Shown piece by piece: positions 11,580 through 55,828 of a stretch of 64,000 bases of DNA. A program made the translations under genes and the position numbers. The notes under the pieces are model-generated. The model was not told the origin of the DNA. It searched no databases and saw nothing but the letters and a program-made list of their open reading frames with translations. The stretch comes from Wickerhamiella versatilis (lineage: Eukaryota), in NCBI GenBank assembly GCA_030867685.1, contig JAQOWU010000008.1:4216001-4280000 (forward strand), read 5' to 3'. Every line of letters starts with the position of its first letter. Positions within the stretch are counted from its first letter, which is position 1.

Positions 11580-13058
11580 ATGCGGAAGACGTTGGTCGAT
11601 ACATTCGGCCGTACGCATAACTACTTACGTATATCGTTGACTGAGAGATGCAATTTGAGATGTCTATACTGTATGCCTGAGGAAGGCGTGCCCCTGCAGC
11701 CAGATGGACATATTTTGACCAGATCGGAAATCAACCACCTAGCAAAGCTCTTTGTGAGTCAAGGTGTAGATAAAATTCGATTAACAGGGGGAGAGCCTAC
11801 TGTGCGTAAAGACTTTCTGGATATTGTTGGTGATCTTGGCCAGCTCGGACTTCGTGACCTCGCAGTCACAACTAACGGTATTGCACTCAAACGAAAGCTA
11901 CCATTGCTAAAAGATGCCGGATTGACAGCTGTGAATATTTCTCTCGATACCTTAGTTGAGGCCAAATACAATTTTTTCACTAGAAGAAAAGGTCTTAATA
12001 GAGTGCTCGACACAATTGAACAAGCTGTCGCTGTTGGAATCCCCAAAGTCAAAATCAATACTGTTGTCATGAGAAACCAAAATGAGGATGAGATTTTGGA
12101 CTTTGCTCGCTTAACGAAGAATCTTCCTGTACAGGTGAGGTTTATAGAATACATGCCGTTTGGTGGGAATCGCTGGGAGAAGCAGAAGATGTTCACTTAT
12201 ATGGAAATGCTTGACAAGCTATCAGAAGAGTTTGAACTTGAACGTATCCCTCATAAGCATGGTGAAACTTCGAAAAATTACCAACTGCCTGGCCATCAAG
12301 GCACATTGGGCTTTATCACCTCAATGTCGTCTAATTTCTGCGGCACATGTAACCGTTTGCGCATCACAGCAGATGGGAATATAAAAGTGTGCCTTTTTGG
12401 TAATGAGGAAGTTAGTCTTCGCGATATGCTGCGTTCGCAAAAGCCAGACGATGAAGTACTTGATGTAATAGGAAAGGCTGTGGGACGCAAGGAAGCAGGA
12501 CATGCCCCTACAAGTCAATTGAAGGATAATAAGAACAGACCTATGATTCTAATTGGGGGTTTCCATACTTCGGCAAGACGACCACGAGAATTAAGTCATG
12601 TTGACTCTGATGGGCAAGCATCAATGGTTGATATCAAAGGAAAGGAAGTGACCAGTCGATTAGCAGTTGCGGAAGGGTATATCAGGTTTTCGAACCCAGC
12701 CACACTAGGCTTGATTGCTAAGAATCAGTTGAAAAAGGGGGATGTTTTTGGCGTGGCACGCGTAGCAGGAATAATGGCGGCAAAGCAGACGTCAAACCTG
12801 ATTCCACTGTGCCATCCTATCCCGTTATCTAAAGTTGGTGTTGATCTGAAACTTGAGGGTGAAGCAGTCATTGCCACTTGCACTGCTGTTTGCAATGGTC
12901 GGACCGGTGTAGAGATGGAAGCTCTTGTGGGCGCATCTATGGCGCTAACAACTATTTATGACATGTGCAAGGCTGTAGATCGCCACATGATTATAGATGG
13001 TTTAAGAGTTTTGCAAAAGAAAGGAGGATCGCATGACTTTAATGAAAGCAAAGCATAG
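11580..13058 (+). CDS. MOCS1: Molybdenum cofactor biosynthesis protein, MoaA (GTP 3',8-cyclase, radical SAM)-MoaC fusion (MOCS1/cnxABC-like)
   Basis: [19 protein letters not shown] (CX3CX2C), [29 protein letters not shown], then MoaC LSHVD...[28 protein letters not shown]. Confidence 0.95.
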
Positions 13059-26241: not shown

Positions 26242-28282
26242 ATGGATTCCGAAGACTGCACCTTTGAGTCTTTTGACTGGCCTTGCCGTCTTGACCGAAT
26301 TCCAATAGCTTCAATAACAAATGAATTGAACGACATTATTGTGAGCATAGTAGACTCGCCAATACCTAAGGATCTATTGCATAACAGCGCAAGTTTTATT
26401 CTTCGGCCCATTATTCTTAGATTGCGCCGGGATTATTTGGGTGCAGGGTTATTTTATGCTCTTATGGCGAATAGAATCCACTTTTTCCAAGAGTGTAAAG
26501 ACGATCCAGCATGGGCTTTACTCTGGAAAACCAGAGCACATGTATGTGAGCTAGTTGCTCTCAAAATGGCTGCTGAATTCGAAACAGATGAACTGGCCCA
26601 AAGTCTTGTGTTTGAGTTTTATCCACTGGCTGATAGAGATTCTGTGGATACCCCCCCTAATCAATATTCCATCTTGGCTACGAATAAGTTCGTTAGAGAT
26701 GGCAATAAAGGCTGAAGCCAAAGCTTTTCTGGCACACCCAGTTATATCACATGTTGTTGAAGATCTATGGGACGGTCATATTGTTCTTGACGCTCCAATA
26801 CACAAGGCACATAGGGCTTCGTTAAGAACGGGTGCTGACTTGAAACGGCTTCTTGCGTCAAGAAGAGGCATTTTATCCCGCTACTCATTTGAAAATACTA
26901 CTATAATCAAGCCAAGTCGTTTGCGTGTGCCTAAATATCGACAATGGCTGAAGAGCTGTAATGTTGCTGTAATCGTTGGGCTGTACATCTGGAACCTCGG
27001 CACAAAGTCCTCGGACTTCTTTGGTTGGGGGCAAGCACTATTTAATTTATGGTGTCTTGGTTTTGTTTATGACGAGTTGTCAACTTTGAGAACTGTTGGT
27101 AGCAAATTGTATTTTATAATTTTGTGGAGCGCGTGTGACTTTTGCACGATCATATTTCTCCTTATATTCTGGGTTCTTCAGTTAAGTGCTCTCTTTTTCG
27201 ATAATTCGAAGCTCATCAAACGATCTTATGATATTTTGGCTGCTGCGGGTATCACCTTGCTTCCTCGTGTCTTCTCCATATTTGAGTTAAGTGAGACTTT
27301 TTCGAGGACTGTAATCTCCGTTCGGAAAATGATTATGGACTTGGTATATTGTTGGACTACTATTGTCATGTTCTCGCTGGGGTTTGGCGCTGCTCTAGTT
27401 CATTTTGGTAGAGGTATTTACCCACCTACGGAAGTCATTTACAGCCTATTTCAAGTTCTCTTTGGGTTCACTCCTGCTGTTTGGCAGACTTGGCAAGGTT
27501 ATCATTCGACATTGGCTGCAGCTATACTATTTTTGTATCTCTTCATGGCCCAGTTTGTGGTGCAAACCATTGTAATCGCAGCATTAACAGCGCGATATAT
27601 GGAAACTGCAGAGCACAGTACTGAGGAATATCATTTTATAAAGGCTGTGAATACCGAAATCAAGATAAAAAGTGAGAGATCAGTATTCTTTTTCTTTACT
27701 GAGCCATTCAATCTTTTGAATCTATTCATGCAACTACTAGCTTCCTTCTGCTCCCCGTCTTTCTACCTTCGAGCCGGCCGCATTATCCTAAAGCTCACGC
27801 ATGCACATATTTTTCTCGTTATCTATATTTACGAGCATGTATCTTATGCAATTTTGACCCTGAGAAAGAAGGCTTGGGAGGAACAGGCTGAGCGCATACA
27901 AAAGCACATTAAGCGCCGACACCAGCGGAGATCAAGGCCAATTCGCCTGGATGAATCTGAACAAACTAGGTTCGACGTCGTAGAGGAAATGCTTTCTCAA
28001 AGGCAAGCGCAAGGAACCCAGACTACACAAGGACAACAATTTCATAACGCATCAATTGGTACTCCACTTCTCTCTACGCGTTCGAGAAGAATGTCACTCG
28101 AAACAGATTCATTAAGCATGATTGAAGATCCTACAGAATTACATGGACTACTGGCCGATGTTCGTGCTACGAACCATCATATTGAAGAGTTGCTTGAGAA
28201 GCTTGTCGGTGGTTCACATAGTCAAAGTTTTGGACACCACCAGGAACAGACAACCCCAACTGCTCCTGGTAGTCTTATATAA
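26242..28282 (+). CDS. TRP/Yvc1-like cation channel split over two frames (+1 frameshift near 26651-26657)
   Basis: Frame A gives YALMANRIHF...TRAHVCELVALK...FEFYPL; frame B continues RISSLEMAIKAEAKAFLAHPV...LWDG...SRLRVPKYR, multiple TM segments and pore-like FGFTPAVW. Could be a pseudogene or an assembly error. Confidence 0.75.
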
Positions 28283-31673: not shown

Positions 31674-32282
31674 CTAGTCCTCCTCAGGCGCTTCTTCCTC
31701 TATGCCCTTATCAAATATTTCTTTCCCGGTAAGCCTTCCATTTGGTCGCTCCTTAGGTATATCCCATCCCATTTCATGACGAAACTTGTTTCTCCACTGC
31801 GAGAAACTTTCTTTTGTAACAGGCGTCCCCCTAAATTTGGCCTGCTCCGCTTCTTCGGCAATTTCAAGTTCTCTAATTCTCTCCAACTCTATGGCCTTGA
31901 TTTTGTCCTGGTAAAGCTCCTCTGCTGTTTCTTTAAGGTATGATACACAAGCAAACACTGAGGGGATCCCCAAGTTTTCTTCCGCACACTGTCGGACCTT
32001 TTCTGTTAAGTCTGAAAGATCTTCTCTTGTGAAATCATACTCAATCTCAGTCCCTTTAGTTTTGTCTGAGCTTGCTTTTTCACCAGGTAAAGCTTCAATA
32101 TCAACGACAGGTATGACTTCAGCGGGATAATTTTCGGGGAATGCAACATGAACCTTCAGTTTACGAACAGGATGAGTTTCCAAGCAAACCAAAACAGAGA
32201 ATTCAGTATCGGAAACCACATCGAGCTCGTCAGGATAGATCGATTGTAATATATCGATCTCCTCCCTTTGCTCGTCGGTCAT
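31674..32282 (-). CDS. GIR2: RWD-domain DRG/Rbg2 partner Gir2
   Basis: EQREEIDILQSIYPDE, FPENYP, EENLGIPSVF, KFRGTPVTKESFSQWR, RLTGKEIF; ATG 32282. Confidence 0.92.
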   Translation of the reverse strand: MTDEQREEIDILQSIYPDELDVVSDTEFSVLVCLETHPVRKLKVHVAFPENYPAEVIPVVDIEALPGEKASSDKTKGTEIEYDFTREDLSDLTEKVRQCAEENLGIPSVFACVSYLKETAEELYQDKIKAIELERIRELEIAEEAEQAKFRGTPVTKESFSQWRNKFRHEMGWDIPKERPNGRLTGKEIFDKGIEEEAPEED

Positions 32283-32323
32283 GGTAATACACCCTGCTCT
32301 CGCAAAGACAAAATAATTATGTA

Positions 32324-33214
32324 ATGGAGAATTTCCTTGAGCAGCTACAATCCGACCCGACAGCTGTGATTTCGAAGCTCGAGGAGCAGTTTGAATGTGA
32401 CAAGGACAACTTAGAAGTATCCCAGCTACTCGCTGAGGCATACTTCGAGATAGGTGATCTTGAATCAGCTCTTAAGTTTACACAACACAGCTTAAAACTG
32501 GACCCTACTGGAAGTCGAGGAGGCTTCGATAAGTTTATGTGGCAAGCACAAATTGTAGGTGGTCATGAGGGACATGGCTGGTATCAGTCTGGAATAAATG
32601 GCTTGAAGAGTCAAGCTTTGACCGTGTCGCCTCTTGGACTGGCAGCGCCCGAATGCGCAAATCTGCGGCAGAAAGTGTGCGCAGGGTTAAATGGTATGAT
32701 CGAAATCTGGTTGACGGAACTATGTATGGAGCCAAATGCAGAGCAGATGTGTGAGCGGCTAGTTACCGAGGCACTTATGGTAGATGACACAAACCCAGAG
32801 GTTTGGAGTATGCTGGGAAGCATCCGCATTTCGCAGTGTCGCCAATCTGAGGCAAAGGATGCCCTTGAAAAATCATGGTCATTATGGTCTAATTGTGATG
32901 TGGACGGTTCACAAATTCCTTCGTTGATACGACTAGCACAGAGTTTGATTGAAGTGGGTTGTTCAGAAACGGCTATTGACATCACAACGTCGCTGGCAAC
33001 TTTGGATGATCAAGTACCAGATATATATTACTTGAATGCAATCGCATATCAGCAGCTTCTTGAACGTTCGCAAACAGATTCAGACCGCATCTCCCATATT
33101 TCAGCTGCGCGAGAGGCTTTAGAACTTATGCTTGAGCTTCCTGAACTAGATGACTCTTTGGTAGAGGCTGGTAATGACATTTTATCCCAACTTCCACCTC
33201 TGCAGAGTGCCTAA
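32324..33214 (+). CDS. ACL4: TPR assembly chaperone of Rpl4
   Basis: KFMWQAQIVGG, MIEIWLTELCMEPNAEQMCE, LGSIRISQ motifs. Confidence 0.9.
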   Translation: MENFLEQLQSDPTAVISKLEEQFECDKDNLEVSQLLAEAYFEIGDLESALKFTQHSLKLDPTGSRGGFDKFMWQAQIVGGHEGHGWYQSGINGLKSQALTVSPLGLAAPECANLRQKVCAGLNGMIEIWLTELCMEPNAEQMCERLVTEALMVDDTNPEVWSMLGSIRISQCRQSEAKDALEKSWSLWSNCDVDGSQIPSLIRLAQSLIEVGCSETAIDITTSLATLDDQVPDIYYLNAIAYQQLLERSQTDSDRISHISAAREALELMLELPELDDSLVEAGNDILSQLPPLQSA

Positions 33215-47775: not shown

Positions 47776-49356
47776 ATGGATCGAAGGTGGGTGCAAATAA
47801 TTTGCGCTGTCCTTTGGAACTTGTTGGCAGCAGGTCCAGTATTTGGATTCGCCGCCCTTAAACCTATTCTTATCAGCGAAGGGGTTTATGCTGATGTTTG
47901 TAAAGCGTCAACGACTGATAATGAGCCCTGTGTTGAACAGGACCTCAAGCTCAACTTCATCTTCACTGTCGCTGCTGGATTGACTAACATTGTTGCCTTT
48001 TTTGTGGGGTTTGTCCTTGATAACCATGGGCCTCGCGTATGTGGGTTTATCGGAAGTTTTCTGCTAGCCTGGGGGTCACTCACAATGGCCTTTGCACCGA
48101 CCAGCAAGTTTGATTCCTTGCGTTCTTGGTTCCCTTCTCTAGACCCATACCTTTGCGGTTATTCATTGCTTGCCCTTGGAGGGCCATTTGTGTTCATTTC
48201 AACATTTCAACTGGCCAACACTTTCCCAAAGCACTCGGGTAAGATATTGGCCTCCATTACTGGTGCTTTCGACACCTCGTCTGCACTGTTCATGATATGG
48301 CGCCTGATTTATCAGAACTATACCTCAAAATTAGGAATTCAACAGTTTTTCACTGGCTACTTGGTAGTACCGGTGTTTATATTCCTCTGCCAACTTTTCA
48401 TCATGCCCACAAGCTCTTATGTGTCTTTAGGCGTTACAAGAAAGTTCGAAATTGAGGGTCTAGATGCCGATGGTAATCTTGTTTTAGGTGATGATGGTGC
48501 ACGCGCTATTCCTGATTCGGGTGTGCGGGAAGAGGCTATCAGACGCCAGTCTGTCTCGGCACAATCTACACCTTCAGTAAACAACAAAAGGGTCCGCCAG
48601 GTATCAACTCTCGCTGATCGTCGTAAATCTATCCTTGAAGAACATGTGAGCCAGCGTCTAGAACAATCCACACACGGAATTTATGGAATTCTGCATGATG
48701 AGCCAGTAAGTAAACAGCTGGCAACACCATGGTTCGTCCTGATGCTCTGCTTTACGGTGATTTGCATGCTCCGAATCAATTATTTCGTGGCTACAGTACG
48801 CTCCCAAGAGAACTATTTGCTCGGTAGCTTTGAGTCTGCACAGAGGATGGGTGGTATATTCGACATTGCTTTGCCCTTGGGTGGCCTTGTAGCGATTCCT
48901 TTGATTGGTATTGCCCTCGATACTATTAGTACCCTCTATATCCTTGAATTCATTGTTTGTGTCAGCGTGACTATCGGCATATTGGGCTGTTTTCACAGCT
49001 TTGTCCTAAATCTGATCGGAATTCTAATTCTCGTGGTCTATCGTCCATTTTATTATACCGTTGTCTCTGATTATAGCGCAAAAGTATTTGGTTTTGTTAC
49101 TTTTGGTACCGTTTATGGGCTTGCCATGTCGATATCTGGTGTTCTAAATATGCTGCAATCAGTCATTGACCGCTTGACAAAGACATATTTTAAGTCAAAC
49201 CCGATTCCTATCAATATAATCCTTACAGGGCTTACACTACTCTTTGGCGTTTCCCTTGTCACATATGCTAAGCAGCAGGGTGAAAAACGCCTCGCTGCCC
49301 TTAATTCTAGCGCCGTAGAGGACTATGGTGCCGTTGATGACTCTGATCCAAGATAG
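47776..49356 (+). CDS. FMP42: MFS transporter Fmp42 (SLC43-like)
   Basis: AAGPVFGFAALKPILISEGVY, QDLKLN, GAFDTSSA, MLRINYFVATV, RPFYYT, FGFVTFGTVYG. Confidence 0.9.
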   Translation: MDRRWVQIICAVLWNLLAAGPVFGFAALKPILISEGVYADVCKASTTDNEPCVEQDLKLNFIFTVAAGLTNIVAFFVGFVLDNHGPRVCGFIGSFLLAWGSLTMAFAPTSKFDSLRSWFPSLDPYLCGYSLLALGGPFVFISTFQLANTFPKHSGKILASITGAFDTSSALFMIWRLIYQNYTSKLGIQQFFTGYLVVPVFIFLCQLFIMPTSSYVSLGVTRKFEIEGLDADGNLVLGDDGARAIPDSGVREEAIRRQSVSAQSTPSVNNKRVRQVSTLADRRKSILEEHVSQRLEQSTHGIYGILHDEPVSKQLATPWFVLMLCFTVICMLRINYFVATVRSQENYLLGSFESAQRMGGIFDIALPLGGLVAIPLIGIALDTISTLYILEFIVCVSVTIGILGCFHSFVLNLIGILILVVYRPFYYTVVSDYSAKVFGFVTFGTVYGLAMSISGVLNMLQSVIDRLTKTYFKSNPIPINIILTGLTLLFGVSLVTYAKQQGEKRLAALNSSAVEDYGAVDDSDPR

Positions 49357-49478
49357 TTGACTATGAACCTGGAAATAAAAATGAGATATCACGTTCTAAG
49401 TGATAATGAAACAAACTCGAAAGACAATTTACCTGGAATTTTTTTATTTTGAGTATATACTTATTTAAAGTCTTGAAG

Positions 49479-51125
49479 TTAGTGGTCGCTAACGTCATGT
49501 GTCCGTGAGATACTAAAGACTTTTCCTGGATTCAGAATCATATGTGGATCATATGCCTGCTTCAATTGCCTCATGGCATCGACAGCGATTTGTCCGACTT
49601 CTTCAATGACATAGTGACGTTTACCTACACCAACGCCATGCTCACCGGTACAGGTGCCGTCAAGAGCCAGAGCTCTTTTTATCATAAGATGAACTGCATC
49701 TGAGACCTCCTTTGTCTGGGTTTCAGGGTCATATGTTAAGAGTGCGTGGAAATTTCCATCCCCTACATGACCAACAATGCCCCCACGAATTCCCAAAGAT
49801 TGCAATTCCTCCTTCGTCTTGCTGATGATTTCTGTGAGATGAGATATCGGAACAGCCACGTCGGTTGTCCAGCACTTATGCCCCTTTGGTGCTGCGAAGA
49901 AAACCGACCATAGTGCAGTTTTTCTAGCAGACCATAGCTCTTCTGTTTCATCCTCATTTTTTGCGAATTCGAAGGATAACGATTTGTTTTCAACTGAGAT
50001 CTTTTTAACATCCTCAATCAAGTTTTCCACAGTGGAATCCGAAGAACCAGCAAACCTCAAAAGTAATGTATGCTTCTCACTCCACTTCCGATCTGTTGCA
50101 CCTGAATCGTTTATGATTTTCATCATATTGTCATCCAAAAATTCCATGGCATCAAGAATGAGTCCCGACTGAAGGATCTTCTCAACAGTATCTGTGGCAT
50201 TTTTAGGTGTATCAAAGGTCAAGAGACCCACGCGCCTAATAGGAGGGATAGGATGTAACTTCAATGTTGCTTCTGTCACAATGCCAAGAGTACCTTCTGC
50301 CCCGACAAACACATCGGTAAGACTATACCCAGCACTCGACTTTCTTGGTCGTTGTCTGGTCTTGATGATAGATCCATCAGCAAGGACAACCGTGAGGTTA
50401 ACAACATTCTGCCTCATGGTACCATACCTATAAGCATTTGTCCCTGAACAGCACGTACCAGTCATGCCACCTATCTGTGCCCCGGGTCCTGGATCAGGGC
50501 CAAAAAACACATCATACGGCTTTAGCTGATCATTTAGATCCTCCCATCCAATAGCAGGTTGCACAACAACATCAAGGTCGTCTTTGTGAACCGCAAGTAT
50601 GTTGCACATGTTACTCATATCTAATGATATTCCACCATAGACAGGTGTGAAATGACCCTCAAGCGATGTACCACCTGAGAAGGCAGTAACTGGCACTCGA
50701 TAGTCATGGCATATCTTAAGGATTTTTGATACTTCTTCGGTGGACGAAGGATATACAATAGTCTGTGGCTTCTCTCCCTTTTTGGGATGGCGCGTTTGCC
50801 AACCCGAATCAGCGTGCGTATCAAGCAAATCAGCTTCGTCGGTAACGTTGTCATTTCCCACTATTTTTTTGATTTCAGCAACAGCAGCTTTTTCCTCGGA
50901 AAGACTTGCATATTTTGGCTCCTTCAATTCATCTAATGGAAGCGTACTGTTTGCTTTAGTATCTGGAGCTGCTTTAAACTGGTTATAAGCGAGAAGTCCA
51001 GAAGCCAATCCTGATGAAAAAATAAGCGATGTTGTTAACAACTTGCTTTGGCTACTCCTTCCAGCACTTGATGATGATCCGAAGCGACGAGCGCTACCTA
51101 ATATTCTACCAAAACTTCTCCTCAT
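49479..51125 (-). CDS. DLD1: Mitochondrial FAD-linked D-lactate dehydrogenase (cytochrome)
   Basis: FSGGTSLEGH, PDPGPGAQIGGM, SGTNAYRYGTM, GHVGDGNFH, GTCTGEHGVG; presequence. Confidence 0.92.
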   Translation of the reverse strand: MRRSFGRILGSARRFGSSSSAGRSSQSKLLTTSLIFSSGLASGLLAYNQFKAAPDTKANSTLPLDELKEPKYASLSEEKAAVAEIKKIVGNDNVTDEADLLDTHADSGWQTRHPKKGEKPQTIVYPSSTEEVSKILKICHDYRVPVTAFSGGTSLEGHFTPVYGGISLDMSNMCNILAVHKDDLDVVVQPAIGWEDLNDQLKPYDVFFGPDPGPGAQIGGMTGTCCSGTNAYRYGTMRQNVVNLTVVLADGSIIKTRQRPRKSSAGYSLTDVFVGAEGTLGIVTEATLKLHPIPPIRRVGLLTFDTPKNATDTVEKILQSGLILDAMEFLDDNMMKIINDSGATDRKWSEKHTLLLRFAGSSDSTVENLIEDVKKISVENKSLSFEFAKNEDETEELWSARKTALWSVFFAAPKGHKCWTTDVAVPISHLTEIISKTKEELQSLGIRGGIVGHVGDGNFHALLTYDPETQTKEVSDAVHLMIKRALALDGTCTGEHGVGVGKRHYVIEEVGQIAVDAMRQLKQAYDPHMILNPGKVFSISRTHDVSDH

Positions 51126-51161
51126 ATTGCCGAGGGGAGTTGAGAATGAAACAAGGTAGGT

Positions 51162-51631
51162 TTAGTCAGTACGACCCAAGTCAGTGACAATAACGTCAGT
51201 GGGTCCCGATGTCAGCTGTCACAAATAAATGTAAAAATATGAGAATTAACAGTTTATATACGCAAACAATTCCTGAAATCTCTATTGTTACACTATTCGT
51301 ACTACTCGGGGCAAGTTAGTCAGTAATACGACACATGTAAGTGACATCGCGCGAGTGGGTCCCGAAGTCAGCAGTCAGACATTGATTTAGAAATATGTGA
51401 ATTAGCAGTTTATCTACGCAAACAACTCCTGAACTCTTTTGTTGCACTATTTCGTACCACTCGTGTTAGTCAGTATATAAGATTTAGTGGGCTATCTTGC
51501 ATTGTCCAACCAGCCTCGGGTAGGAACAATGACGTGATTGGATCGCAACGTCAGCAGTCACACATCAATATGAAAATATGAATTAGCAATTTATCGACGC
51601 AAACAATTCCTGAAATCTTTTATCGTACCAC
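51162..51631. repeat. Three diverged direct tandem repeats of ~150-165 bp in the DLD1/formamidase divergent intergenic region
   Basis: Units start TTAGTCAGTA at 51162, 51316 and 51466; shared blocks GTCAGC(T/A)GTCA, AAATATG..AATTA(A/G)CA(G/A)TTTAT, ACGCAAACAA(T/C)TCCTGAA and TCGTAC(T/C)AC; AGTGGGTCCCGA in units 1 and 2. Confidence 0.9.
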
Positions 51632-51828
51632 ATAATATCTCATCTATAATTGTAATAAATCCAGCACCAAATGAGCTCATCAATTACAGATTTTATACTG
51701 GAATTTTAATTCCCTGCTTGATTTTTTTGGGGTTTATAACTTATTCAATTCCAAATTGATGGTGGCAAACAACGCATAGAGCATCTGAAGTGAGTAATCG
51801 TTTATCAGCTAGTAAGCAAAATATTAGG

Positions 51829-52848
51829 ATGGCAAGTACAGGAAGCGTGAGCGCAAGCGAAGATGGGGTTTTGATCGCCCTCATCCAGTACCAGGTTCCA
51901 GTTATCCAATTTCCCAGTGATATCCAGAAGCAAGTAGAGACAATCTGTCGAATTGTTAAATCGACTAAGAAAGGCTATCCCGATCTCGACCTGATAGTAT
52001 TCCCAGAATACTCTACCACAGGATTGAACACATCAATTTGGACATATGACGAAATGCTGCAGACGATTGATGGTCCGGAAGTGCTGAAATTCCGAGAATC
52101 TTGCCGTGAGAATGAAGTCTGGGGAGTATTCTCAATTATGGAAAAGAATGAAGACCCCAACGTACCACCATATAATACAGCTTTGATCATTGATAAAACT
52201 GGCCAAATTGCTCTTCACTATAGAAAATTGCAGCCCTGGTGCCCTGTCGAGCCCTGGTCTCCGGGTAATAGAGGAATGCCTGTCTGCAATGGCCCGAAAG
52301 GATCCAAACTGGCTGTTTGCATCTGCCATGACGGAATGTTTCCAGAATTAGCACGAGAGGCCGCTTACAAGGGGGCTAATATCTACATCAGAATATCTGG
52401 ATATTCGACTCAAGTAAACGATCAATGGATCTGGACTAATCGCACCAACGCATTTCAGAATCTGATGTTTACAGTTTCTGTGAACTTAGCAGGATATGAC
52501 AACACCTTCTATTATTTTGGGGAAGGGACGGTATGTAATTATGATGGAAACATTGTTCAACAAGGCCACCGCAATCCCTGGGAAATAGTGACAGCAGAGC
52601 TCTTCCCCTCAATTGCAGATAAAGCACGCCAGAATTGGGCTCTAGAAAACAATGTTTTCAACCTGGGCTGTCGTGGATATGTTGGATTTCCTGGTGGTGC
52701 AAGGGAGAACTATCTCACTTGGGTAAAAGATTTAGCGGAGGGCAACTACAAATTACCATGGGATGATCAGGTGCGTATTAGGGATGGGTGGAAATATTAC
52801 CCGGATGGTGTTAAACTAGGCCCTTTACCTAAAGAGTTTCAGGAGTAA
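51829..52848 (+). CDS. amiF: Formamidase, bacterial AmiF type (nitrilase superfamily aliphatic amidase)
   Basis: Glu-Lys-Cys triad ([23 protein letters not shown]) and long AmiF-like blocks [64 protein letters not shown]; first ATG 51829. Confidence 0.9.
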
Positions 52849-52849
52849 C

Positions 52850-54016
52850 TCATAGAGGGTATATTAGAGTCTTTCCAAGTTGAGGCGCTACTACATCCTC
52901 CCCAGCCTGTTTCTTCTCCAGAAGAAGTTTGGGCGGTTCATAGTACGGTTCCTCGCTCATCACGAAAGTACCCCAGTGAACGCCAATCAGGCTCTTAGCT
53001 CCCATTTCACGCATCACTCGCAGCGATTCTGTCGGACACATATGCTGAGCTTTTAAATGCCAACGAGGCCGGTACGCCCCACATGGCACCGCAGCAAGGG
53101 AACAACCCTTTCCATATACTTTCGCTATTGTCTCGTAAAGCCCCTCTGCAAAGCCTGAGTCACCAACATGGAAAAACAGTGGTTTTCCATTTCGTAGCAA
53201 TAAGAAGGAACACCATAATGTCTCATTAGAATCAACGATATACCGTCCAGACCAATGCATTGCTGGCGTGCAGGCTATTTCATAACCCAGTTTTGGGTCT
53301 ACGTTAGGAAGCGGAATACGTTCCCACCATGTCATTTCAATGAACTTTTCAATGCCTAAATTAGAGAGATGTTTACCCACCCCCGTAGGAACTATCCAGG
53401 CAGTATTATTGCCAAGATTTTTGGCAGCTGTAAAATCAAGATGATCTTGATGATCATGGGATACAAGGACAGCATCGGGAGTAGGTAGACTTTCCACAGT
53501 ACATGGCGGGGGCACGAGTCTTTGGGGACCAACCCGTGGGCTCACAACGCTCTCTGAAAACATCGGATCAGTCAAGATATTTACAGGTTTACTTACCCCA
53601 GGGAATTGTACAAGAGCACAACTTTGTCCAAGCCACGTAAATGTCATACTATCCTTTTGTTCTCTTCCGTTTTCGCTGCTGTCCCTTCCCAGTAAATCCC
53701 ACTCTGGCGTGTAAATCGGCAGAAATTTAGCTATGGCACTTTTGTCCTTAGGAACTTCTCCAGCCGGCTGAATACGAAACATTTCGGTGACTCTCCGGAA
53801 AAAAAACTCAAACACAGACTGATGCCGATACTCAGGAAAAGGATTGTGATAGCGACCATGGATATATATTGGCTGGTAACGCTCGAGTGGATCGTCAGAG
53901 AGATGGCGTTCCCGAATAGTTCTCATAACTTCTACACGCACGAGAGCTATATACATGCCATATCCACCCGCGATTCCTCCTACTGTCCACCACGCTCGCC
54001 GGCACCATGCTCGCAT
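52850..54016 (-). CDS. FMP30: NAPE-PLD-like metallo-beta-lactamase protein Fmp30
   Basis: NPFPEYRHQSVFEF, TWLGQS, ILTDPMFS, VSHDHQDHLD, PAMHWSGR, GVHWGTF. Confidence 0.88.
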   Translation of the reverse strand: MRAWCRRAWWTVGGIAGGYGMYIALVRVEVMRTIRERHLSDDPLERYQPIYIHGRYHNPFPEYRHQSVFEFFFRRVTEMFRIQPAGEVPKDKSAIAKFLPIYTPEWDLLGRDSSENGREQKDSMTFTWLGQSCALVQFPGVSKPVNILTDPMFSESVVSPRVGPQRLVPPPCTVESLPTPDAVLVSHDHQDHLDFTAAKNLGNNTAWIVPTGVGKHLSNLGIEKFIEMTWWERIPLPNVDPKLGYEIACTPAMHWSGRYIVDSNETLWCSFLLLRNGKPLFFHVGDSGFAEGLYETIAKVYGKGCSLAAVPCGAYRPRWHLKAQHMCPTESLRVMREMGAKSLIGVHWGTFVMSEEPYYEPPKLLLEKKQAGEDVVAPQLGKTLIYPL

Positions 54017-54217
54017 AAGCGATAAGTTGGAATCAGATGTCAACTAGATGAGAAAAAAAAGGGCATATCCTGGCACATATATGTATATTTTATTTGAATA
54101 TAATTATAATCGTGATGTTCTCTGCACACCATTCCATCAATTGGTGCGCTGTGAATATAAGAAATAGTTTGCAGAAGAATAGGACGAGTGCAGAGTTTCA
54201 ACTGCATTTTTCTCACG

Positions 54218-55018
54218 TCAATATTCACCAGTCACTACAGTAACCGCGTGTCCACCAACGTTAATGGTTCCATTTTCGTTCGTTAATATGACATGTCCTT
54301 TCCTTGCTACTTTCTCACCCTGAAAAATCTCTGCGTGGGGTAAGCGCAGCATTGCCATAGCAGCTCCGGATCCCGAGCCACATACAGGGTCCTCGTCGAC
54401 ACCTACTGCAGGAGCGAAGGTGCGCAATTCATATGTTCCATTCTTTTTTTCGCCTAATGCCTGAATACCAGTCCATCCTTGGTCGATGCACACCTTCTTG
54501 ATTTGATTAACGTCCGGCTGTACAGCAAGTACAGCTTCTGCAGACCGTAGAAGTACTGTATGCCACACGGGACCGACGTCGAATGTCTCACTTTTGAGCA
54601 CTGCGGAACCAATTATATTCGAGACATCAAGTGAGGATTCAACGGCTTTGGCATAAGGAAGTTCGAAAGAAATCACACCATTTTCTCGCACGTGGATTCT
54701 TATCAAGCCAGCCCCACATTCTTGGAAAATTACGCCATCATGTACGGAAGCTATTCCTGCCTCAATCACCGCATGGCAGGTACCTATGGTTGGGTGTCCA
54801 GCAAAAGGCAATTCACCACCAGGTGTGAAGATTTTCACCTTATAATCAGCACCAGGTATAGTAGTCTTCTGTACAAATGTTGTTTCACTCAGGTTTGTCC
54901 ATTTTGCAATTTGCAACATTTCCTGGTCACTTAATTCATCAGCATCAAAAAATACCGCAACAGGATTCCCATAGAAAGGAACTGAAGTGAATACATCCAC
55001 TTGTCGAAATTTTCCCAT
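54218..55018 (-). CDS. YHI9: PhzF/diaminopimelate-epimerase-fold protein (Yhi9-like)
   Basis: QVDVFT..PFYGNPVAV, WTNLSETTF, IFTPGGELPFAGHPTIG, EDPVCGSGSGA. Confidence 0.85.
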   Translation of the reverse strand: MGKFRQVDVFTSVPFYGNPVAVFFDADELSDQEMLQIAKWTNLSETTFVQKTTIPGADYKVKIFTPGGELPFAGHPTIGTCHAVIEAGIASVHDGVIFQECGAGLIRIHVRENGVISFELPYAKAVESSLDVSNIIGSAVLKSETFDVGPVWHTVLLRSAEAVLAVQPDVNQIKKVCIDQGWTGIQALGEKKNGTYELRTFAPAVGVDEDPVCGSGSGAAMAMLRLPHAEIFQGEKVARKGHVILTNENGTINVGGHAVTVVTGEY

Positions 55019-55069
55019 CACGAATCTAACCGTCTAAGTCAAGATGATTAATTAAGGATCAACTGCTTT

Positions 55070-55828
55070 ATGGGAGGAGATTTACTGCGGCCGAGGCCCC
55101 CAATCCATTACCTTAAGCCAGTCGATCCTGAGCCTTCAAGGAGACGTACTTGTCAGATATCTGGAGTATCATCTTTCTTGTCAGAGCTAACAAAGGTTGG
55201 CGCCGCATATGACATCCGACCGTCAGCGTCACCAACACCTGCCCAGCAACTTAGTGAAAAACGCTGGGCTGATTGGCAAAAGGAGTTGCAACTTCAGAAA
55301 AGCTGGAACCCTCACAATGACCAACAAATAAAAGGTAATCCCCACGCGACCCTGGTGTTGTATAAGCTGCCACGGTCCTTGACTGAAGAAATTCTGTCTC
55401 GACATTTCAGCACCGCCGGTAATGTTGAATATATACGTGTTGTTCGTGATACTCGCAATAAACCAAGAGGTTATGCATTGGTACAGTTTTCCCAGTCATC
55501 AACGGCCAGGGAATTGGCCCAGCACCATTCTCTTACTGTTGAAGGTCATACCATCATGTGCGACATGCAACGGGCAAAAGTACAGATGAACTGGAGACCA
55601 AAGAGGCTTGGAGGGTCATTGACTTATCCAAAAGCAGCCAATCGGCATCAGAGGGGTAATTTCTCCAATCGAGGCCGTGGAGGCGGAAGAGGTAATTTTG
55701 GCAGAGGAAGGAGGGTTGATCGCCCAGCCCGAATTGGTGAATCGACACCTTATGCTCATCCTAAGCCAATTCCACCGGTGGCGCGGCAAGATCCACGCGC
55801 TGGGGGGCGATCCCTCAGAAGGTACTAG
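55070..55828 (+). CDS. SNP1: U1 snRNP 70K protein
   Basis: PRPPIHYLKPVD, ISGVS, WNPHND..IKGNPHATL, RRM with KPRGYALVQF, WRPKRLGG. Confidence 0.88.
   Translation: MGGDLLRPRPPIHYLKPVDPEPSRRRTCQISGVSSFLSELTKVGAAYDIRPSASPTPAQQLSEKRWADWQKELQLQKSWNPHNDQQIKGNPHATLVLYKLPRSLTEEILSRHFSTAGNVEYIRVVRDTRNKPRGYALVQFSQSSTARELAQHHSLTVEGHTIMCDMQRAKVQMNWRPKRLGGSLTYPKAANRHQRGNFSNRGRGGGRGNFGRGRRVDRPARIGESTPYAHPKPIPPVARQDPRAGGRSLRRY

Follow-up and report, generated by a model that had tools for sequence, protein, structure and literature searches.

The window analysed here, a 64-kb stretch of Wickerhamiella versatilis DNA, carries at 51829..52848 on the forward strand an intronless ORF of 339 amino acids with an ATG start, which encodes an AmiF-type formamidase of bacterial affinity, is linked to yeast genes and is expressed. 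In our view this ORF very likely descends from a bacterial amiF gene which entered a chromosome of W. versatilis, or of a yeast very closely related to it, and became domesticated there, by which we mean that its composition is host-like, that it has its own transcription between native genes, and that its active site is fully conserved. The transfer is already catalogued in print (2018 and 2026) and thus not new, and it is one among several hundred catalogued bacterial genes in the clade of Wickerhamiella and Starmerella (W/S), with no new type of event involved. It is nonetheless a clean, well-supported case of a bacterial metabolic gene, with a predicted enzyme product, in a eukaryote, and the analysis adds to the published tables the anatomy of the locus: a stop codon one base from that of a convergent native gene, and an upstream intergenic region built from repeats.

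The encoded protein has one Pfam domain, CN_hydrolase (PF00795, E 4.7e-36), in agreement with an initial annotation made from the sequence, which had described an intronless 339-aa nitrilase-superfamily amidase resembling AmiF formamidases and bearing an intact E-K-C triad. The likeness to AmiF holds end to end. The NCBIfam equivalog for formamidase, NF009803, matches over model positions 1-329 of 333 at 588.2 bits (cut-off 406), whereas the sister model for aliphatic amidase (AmiE), NF009802, scores 243.2 bits, below its cut-off of 427. Solved formamidases lead the structural matches, with PDB 5g3o aligned over residues 1-323 of the yeast protein (E 9.5e-150), 2dyu over residues 1-325 (E 6.8e-145) and 2e2k at E 1.6e-143; these structures are about 65-70% identical to it, and aliphatic amidases rank after them at E ~1e-58. 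The entries are labelled only as "Formamidase", and we take 2dyu/2e2k and 5g3o to be the Helicobacter pylori and Bacillus cereus enzymes, respectively. The solved bacterial proteins and the yeast protein align without large gaps over residues 1-323/325, have the E-K-E-C residues in common and are all ~335-346 aa long, but they differ in setting, since the yeast ORF has a eukaryotic host and no adjoining amide transporter or regulator.

The triad residues E60, K133 and C166 are all found in conserved contexts, together with E141, in a numbering that presumably follows that of the H. pylori enzyme. In an alignment of 141 rows, these four columns are invariant in the 140 relatives. Those relatives agree completely at 56 columns, and the yeast protein has the shared residue at all 56; of the 124 columns with conservation of at least 95%, it retains 121. 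The three departures, V185I, Y214F and I276V, are all conservative. Eight of its residues are private, that is, absent from the other 140 rows, and bacterial rows have between 0 and 11 such residues. By this pattern of conservation, the yeast ORF is an intact AmiF under purifying selection. If the gene came from bacteria but its product has since lost the formamidase role, having shifted to short aliphatic amides or to some other function altogether, then one might expect features such as those eight private residues, the "aliphatic amidase" label from PANTHER in the published table, the failure of a bacterial formamide/urea-type transporter and regulator to be co-transferred, and the constitutive expression reported in the published W. 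versatilis data. We see only a slight chance of this, since the AmiE score falls so far below its cut-off when the AmiF score lies well above its own, and since the conserved columns are retained almost in full with only conservative changes.

The close relatives that turned up are all bacterial. A search of a 5.8-billion-protein collection gave 3511 matches, and among the best 120 of these, which were the ones considered, full-length identity does not rise above 78%. Organism names are attached to 11 rows of the best 120, every one of them bacterial and not fungal (Photorhabdus, two Corynebacterium, Legionella, two Klebsiella, Weizmannia, Ignatzschineria, Guyparkeria, Thiomicrorhabdus and Halothiobacillus). 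Prokaryote genomes yielded 194 candidate stretches, of which 156 code for relatives; the 80 retained come without exception from bacteria, with 76-81% identity, and are drawn from Pseudomonadota, Cyanobacteriota, Planctomycetota, Thermodesulfobacteriota, Verrucomicrobiota, Bacteroidota and Lentisphaerota. Metagenome contigs gave 133 relatives in 184 stretches, and the 80 kept are all at or below 81% identity, with no closer (yeast) orthologue above that value among them. The gene is also present in 437 plasmid records, 323 of them conjugative and 348 from Klebsiella, and a protein atlas shows bacterial formamidase clusters only. A search of cluster-representative proteins gave a best match of only 48% identity, the representative of the main AmiF cluster not being among its matches. 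The closest kin of the yeast protein are not the solved enzymes 2dyu and 5g3o but a clade at ~80% identity made up mostly of Pseudomonadota and Cyanobacteriota with several other phyla. A bacterial origin by horizontal transfer, as the initial annotation had proposed, fits well with relatives that in four collections are bacterial at 76-81% identity with none closer.

Four trees were compared, a FastTree tree of 141 rows, a quick PMSF tree of 61 rows, a finished careful tree, and a quick tree built without rows P0020, P0037 and P0044. All four place the yeast protein as a single leaf among bacterial rows, and in every tree a branch with support of 99-100 parts it from a clade in which Weizmannia (P0037) is the only named row and whose members are 62-64% identical to it. 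Its sister position, by contrast, shifts from tree to tree. FastTree gives the yeast protein an end branch of 0.27 that leaves the same trifurcation as a 9-row group with the Corynebacterium rows and a 92-row clade that is mostly Pseudomonadota and Cyanobacteria. The quick PMSF tree sets it beside the Corynebacterium-containing group (support 88), both of them in a 98-supported clade that also contains Cernens ardua and Komagataeibacter xylinus. In the careful tree its partner is P0020 (83/90), a row on a long branch, in a pairing that is probably an artefact, and no well-supported set contains the yeast row; in the quick tree lacking the three rows, it lies in an unsupported grade next to the Cernens (L006) and Komagataeibacter (L001) sequences. 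Among the rows that lack names, the FastTree and PMSF trees group P0001-3 with Synechococcus and P0005, P0008, P0013, P0016, P0017 and P0018 with the Corynebacterium rows. This nesting of the yeast sequence among bacterial sequences supports a bacterial origin.

In base composition and codon use the gene matches its host. Its GC content is 0.447 (z -0.40) and its GC3 0.437 (z +0.89), and its codon index is 0.766 against 0.782 +/- 0.012 for 35 window genes, the fifth lowest of 36; the GC3 of bacterial homologues ranges from 0.38 to 0.70. Composition and codon use indistinguishable from those of host genes, a position among housekeeping genes instead of in a chromosome-end region, and a fairly long yeast branch in FastTree are what one would expect if amiF were an old fungal gene passed down vertically and lost from almost every other fungus. 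We regard such a history as very improbable, because identities of 76-81% to many unrelated bacterial phyla, against 62-64% to the Weizmannia-containing clade, place the yeast protein inside bacterial diversity, because no fungus is named among the named rows of the best 120 of 3511 matches, and because a published survey found the gene in only 2 species of the W/S clade (PMC5897096, Figure 2-source data 4). The site occupied before transfer might in principle be sought in related yeasts, but in W. domercqiae the NAPE-PLD gene (00497) and the DLD gene (04966) lie far apart, and with synteny broken at this point the empty site cannot be read there.

The bacterial amiF genes of Klebsiella plasmids, Marinobacter, Cernens ardua and K. 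xylinus K2G30 resemble the yeast gene, at 79-81% identity over 335-339 residues and with the same C-terminal tail. They differ in their neighbours, which the yeast locus lacks: at the K. xylinus K2G30 locus, which is genuinely bacterial, the genes after amiF code for a response regulator of the LuxR type and for a hybrid histidine kinase, and on contig 4 of Cernens ardua (~250273-252373; L006/L083) the gene immediately upstream of amiF encodes an AmiE-like paralogue that is 37% identical to the query. The K. xylinus gene, of the 80% type, sits on a small contig of 6.6 kb whose title includes "cov_435". When 301 Acetobacteraceae genomes were scanned, 24 matches at E <= 1e-80 came up, and K2G30 has the sole 80%-type sequence among them, the other 23 being 47-53% identical; together with the small, high-coverage contig, this suggests that the K2G30 amiF is a mobile or plasmid-borne copy. 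An acetic-acid bacterium was considered as the donor and is unsupported, as only 1 of the 301 Acetobacteraceae genomes has an 80%-type AmiF.

The genomic surroundings of the ORF are those of a yeast. The initial annotation placed the gene between DLD1 and FMP30 with stop codons one base apart, and the domains of both neighbours and the sequence at 52849 agree with it. Upstream and divergent lies a DLD1-like D-lactate dehydrogenase gene (49479..51125, reverse strand, 548 aa, with FAD_binding_4 and FAD-oxidase_C domains), and downstream a convergent NAPE-PLD/FMP30-like gene (52850..54016, reverse strand, 388 aa, with a metallo-beta-lactamase fold, Lactamase_B_2); both are classed as "Native" in the published table, as rows 00162 (K00102, D-lactate dehydrogenase) and 00160 (K13985, NAPE-PLD), respectively (Brito et al. 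2026, PMC13376923). Between DLD1 and AmiF is a divergent intergenic region of 703 bp (51126..51828) that presumably holds both promoters. At the 3' end the sequence reads CAG GAG TAA c TCA, so that the single base 52849 parts the AmiF and FMP30 stops (52846-52852). With the stops one base apart, the 3' end of each mRNA should fall within the other gene, and the AmiF and FMP30 mRNAs must overlap at their 3' ends; the locus illustrates how little space a foreign ORF may leave between itself and a convergent native gene. GC content is smooth across the region, at 0.43-0.47.

Further neighbours carry PhzF, U1-70K, INO1 and COX4 domains by Pfam, and the remaining ORFs of the window encode RhoGAP, eRF1-like, Chs7, Pex14, mitochondrial carrier, ARPC5 and similar proteins. 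INO1, ~3.2 kb from AmiF, matches itself at 100%, then a relative at 87%, and its best named matches are to yeasts and fungi only (Trichomonascus vanleenenianus and Sugiyamaella lignohabitans at 75%, Blastobotrys adeninivorans and Magnusiomyces paraingens at 74%), which points to a Dipodascales yeast. As an observation apart, the protein collection holds a 100% match to INO1, whereas AmiF has none above 78% among its best 120 of 3511, though 20 public runs contain its DNA.

Linkage of the gene to this setting can be followed in public data. Of 24 listed public runs, 20, which belong to 11 studies, contain half or more of the words sampled from 50900-54100. They comprise metagenomes of food, food fermentation and sediment together with isolates under one species label; 11 are perhaps the source of the window itself. 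In one isolate run (X9), a contig of 29,830 bases spans 51488-55200 and carries AmiF unbroken into FMP30 and the PhzF-like gene; a contig of 7,135 bases from this isolate run spans 49000-51514, and in a fermentation metagenome (X16) a contig spans 51950-53569. These independent contigs link AmiF to FMP30 and beyond, and the eukaryotic chromosomal setting claimed in the initial annotation stands. All contigs stop at 51486-51523, 300 bp upstream of the AmiF start, because a 38-nt high-copy unit lies there, with a summed contig depth of 2585 against 15.5 in the isolate run and 972 against ~11 in the metagenome. No single listed public contig bridges this 5' junction, and the contigs on its two sides overlap by 27-28 bases. 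Spanning of both junctions had been put forward as a check, and it succeeds on the 3' side, where contigs of two runs reach into FMP30; on the 5' side there is no such span, and the connection is made through the 27-28-base overlaps and the published gene order only. An assembly chimera, or bacterial contamination fused to yeast DNA, is hardly credible: although public unitigs do stop 300 bp upstream of the start codon, the break falls at the high-copy unit and not at the gene, AmiF continues unbroken into FMP30 and the PhzF-like gene in the 29.8-kb isolate contig and into FMP30 in a metagenome contig too, the stretch recurs in runs of 11 studies, RNA of a second strain covers AmiF, and the published chromosome-level annotation has the same gene order (PMC13376923).

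That annotation can be aligned with the window gene by gene. Window ORFs from 62810 down to 37004 follow the order of the published genes 00152-00169, with 17 of 18 identified by Pfam domain; for the 18th, FMP42, an ORF is in place (47776-49356) with no Pfam match. The published order runs SLC25A23, ARPC5, Ran-binding protein, EFM4, monocarboxylate transporter, INO1, U1-70K, AES1 and NAPE-PLD, and then formamidase, DLD, FMP42, COX4, PAS kinase, VHT1, methionine permease, RIA1 and CHS7 (PMC13376923). The formamidase row, JCM_5958_gene_v001_00161, is listed as "HGT Bacteria", K01455 formamidase, PTHR43674:SF14 aliphatic amidase and "Replacement" (Brito et al. 2026, Commun Biol 9:968, PMC13376923, Supplementary Data 6). 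By gene order, between NAPE-PLD (00160) and DLD (00162), it is the same gene as the AmiF of the window, and in the published rows nothing essential differs. The label "Replacement" is used there for a gene whose putative function is also found in other yeasts. An earlier catalogue likewise lists a formamidase (K01455, IPR003010) with a donor that is putatively gammaproteobacterial and a W/S prevalence of 2, the gene being recorded for C. versatilis as well as for W. domercqiae (Gonçalves et al. 2018, eLife 7:e33034, PMC5897096, Figure 2-source data 4). Two published catalogues therefore class the gene as a bacterial transfer, as the initial annotation had read it. Among the rows listed for three species, including St. 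bombicola, K01455 occurs in two only, those of W. versatilis and W. domercqiae. The W. domercqiae gene, JCM_9478_gene_v001_02120, is a second such gene with other neighbours, between a DCN1-like gene and SEC15. The word "formamidase" does not occur in the main texts of either paper (PMC13376923 and PMC5897096), where the gene appears in tables only, and the parts of these sources that we drew on contain no locus anatomy, enzyme data or dedicated tree for it.

The intergenic region upstream of the ORF is made up in large part of repeats. A separate repeat search detected three degenerate direct repeats of ~156 bp at ~51187-51628 that TRF had missed, spaced 156 and 181-183 bp apart and 71-85% identical (families D1-D4), and blastn finds no other copies elsewhere in the window. 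These repeats could be promoter or UAS elements. The third is broken by the 38-nt high-copy unit at 51486-51523, which is present once in the window, is seen within many other sequence contexts among RNA reads, and is tandemly doubled in the strain used for RNA-seq (a joint that "goes back 38"); it probably marks where a dispersed repeat or a transposable element ends. An Rfam search of 51100-51900 gave no match, and the 703-bp region holds no remnants of bacterial flanking genes, the best of 3333 queries reaching E 0.01. With 4 copies of the GATA-type motif TTATC, the region has 5.7 per kb where the window as a whole has 2.4, an enrichment too weak for a claim of nitrogen regulation through such sites.

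AmiF is expressed in the yeast. None of the listed public runs with the stretch is recorded as RNA. Two raw-read RNA runs (X23 and X24), chosen by species label and with libraries that look unstranded, come from a strain with ~108 fixed differences from the window in the 6.2 kb of 49000-55200 (~1.7%; 40 listed and 68 unlisted) and small indels at 49445, 49467 and 51721, a marked strain divergence under one species label. RNA depth over the AmiF ORF is ~14-64 per bin and mate orientation, with the maximum in bin 52726-52932, against ~150-230 over DLD1, ~20-40 over the FMP30 gene body (53140-53967) and ~0.1-1 in the intergenic stretch 51277-51483. With unstranded libraries, some of the signal at the 3' end of AmiF could stem from the convergent FMP30 transcript. 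In the published table the TPM values of W. versatilis 00161 are 145/134/150 in YNB and 55/66/92 in YPD (PMC13376923, Supplementary Data), and those of W. domercqiae 02120 are 43/76/87 in YNB and 1.5/0.6/1.5 in YPD, ~50-fold lower in YPD (PMC13376923, Supplementary Data 6-7). Higher TPM in YNB, which is based on ammonium, than in YPD is not the pattern expected from classical nitrogen catabolite repression.

What the protein does in the yeast we can predict from its sequence: formamidase activity, formamide as substrate and a physiological role in its use are what the family membership suggests. Enzymes of the AmiF family, thiol amidases of the nitrilase superfamily, hydrolyse formamide to formate and ammonia through a cysteine thioester. 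If the yeast enzyme acts in the same way, Cys166 would attack formamide, aided by Glu60, Lys133 and Glu141, with ammonia leaving first and formate after it. Nitrogen assimilation would take up the ammonia, and formate could be oxidised by the formate dehydrogenases of the yeast; W. versatilis has an annotated native FDH (K00122, TPM ~240-300) and a second, HGT-derived FDH (PMC13376923). In this model the enzyme gene would have been transferred on its own, the transporter and two-component regulator genes associated with bacterial amiF being absent. Formamide is thus a plausible nitrogen source for this yeast, and the assignment to the PANTHER subfamily "ALIPHATIC AMIDASE" (SF14) means that the substrate range may be wider. 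The initial annotation had also speculated on a link to cyanide-derived formamide, for which the published tables offer no footing: "cyanide" and "cyanase" each occur 0 times in Supplementary Data 6-8 for the three species. If the yeast does use formamide, the trait may be of practical value in food-fermentation yeasts, the host being of the soy-sauce type, or for formamide-based selection.

The usual formamidase of fungi, as the initial annotation pointed out in agreement with a review (PMC10781810), belongs to the FmdA/AmdA family. These FmdS-type enzymes, as in Aspergillus nidulans and Schizosaccharomyces pombe, share with AmiF the reaction (EC 3.5.1.49) and the orthology number K01455, but they belong to an unrelated protein family (PMC10781810), and the AmiF of the window has no FmdA/AmdA domain. 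If the published label "Replacement" is taken at its word, the bacterial AmiF would stand in for the FmdS-type formamidase of other yeasts, and this would be a case of a fungal enzyme replaced by an unrelated bacterial one. K01455 was reported in 122 of 238 plant-associated Saccharomycotina strains, a share printed as 34%, with the type of formamidase unstated in the part of the source that we drew on (PMC12506670).

Since the two yeast copies occupy unrelated loci and are differently regulated, one could go further and suppose that W. versatilis and W. domercqiae acquired amiF independently, and that the triplicated ~156-bp element upstream of the W. versatilis gene is a promoter newly built for the foreign ORF. 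We offer this as a tentative conjecture that is rather unlikely to hold as a whole. If it were true, the locus would be a compact case of a promoterless bacterial gene turned into a working yeast gene, with its 3' end processed within the coding region of a neighbour.

Some features of the window lie apart from amiF. No tRNA genes were found in its 64 kb. Two overlapping ORF pairs, 26242-26715 with 26588-28282 and 31674-32441 (reverse strand) with 32324-33214 (forward strand), hint at an intron or at start codons beyond the first ATG. Radical_SAM/Mob_synth_C (MoaA-like) and MoaC domains are fused in one ORF at 11580-13058, from which it follows that this yeast has molybdenum-cofactor synthesis.
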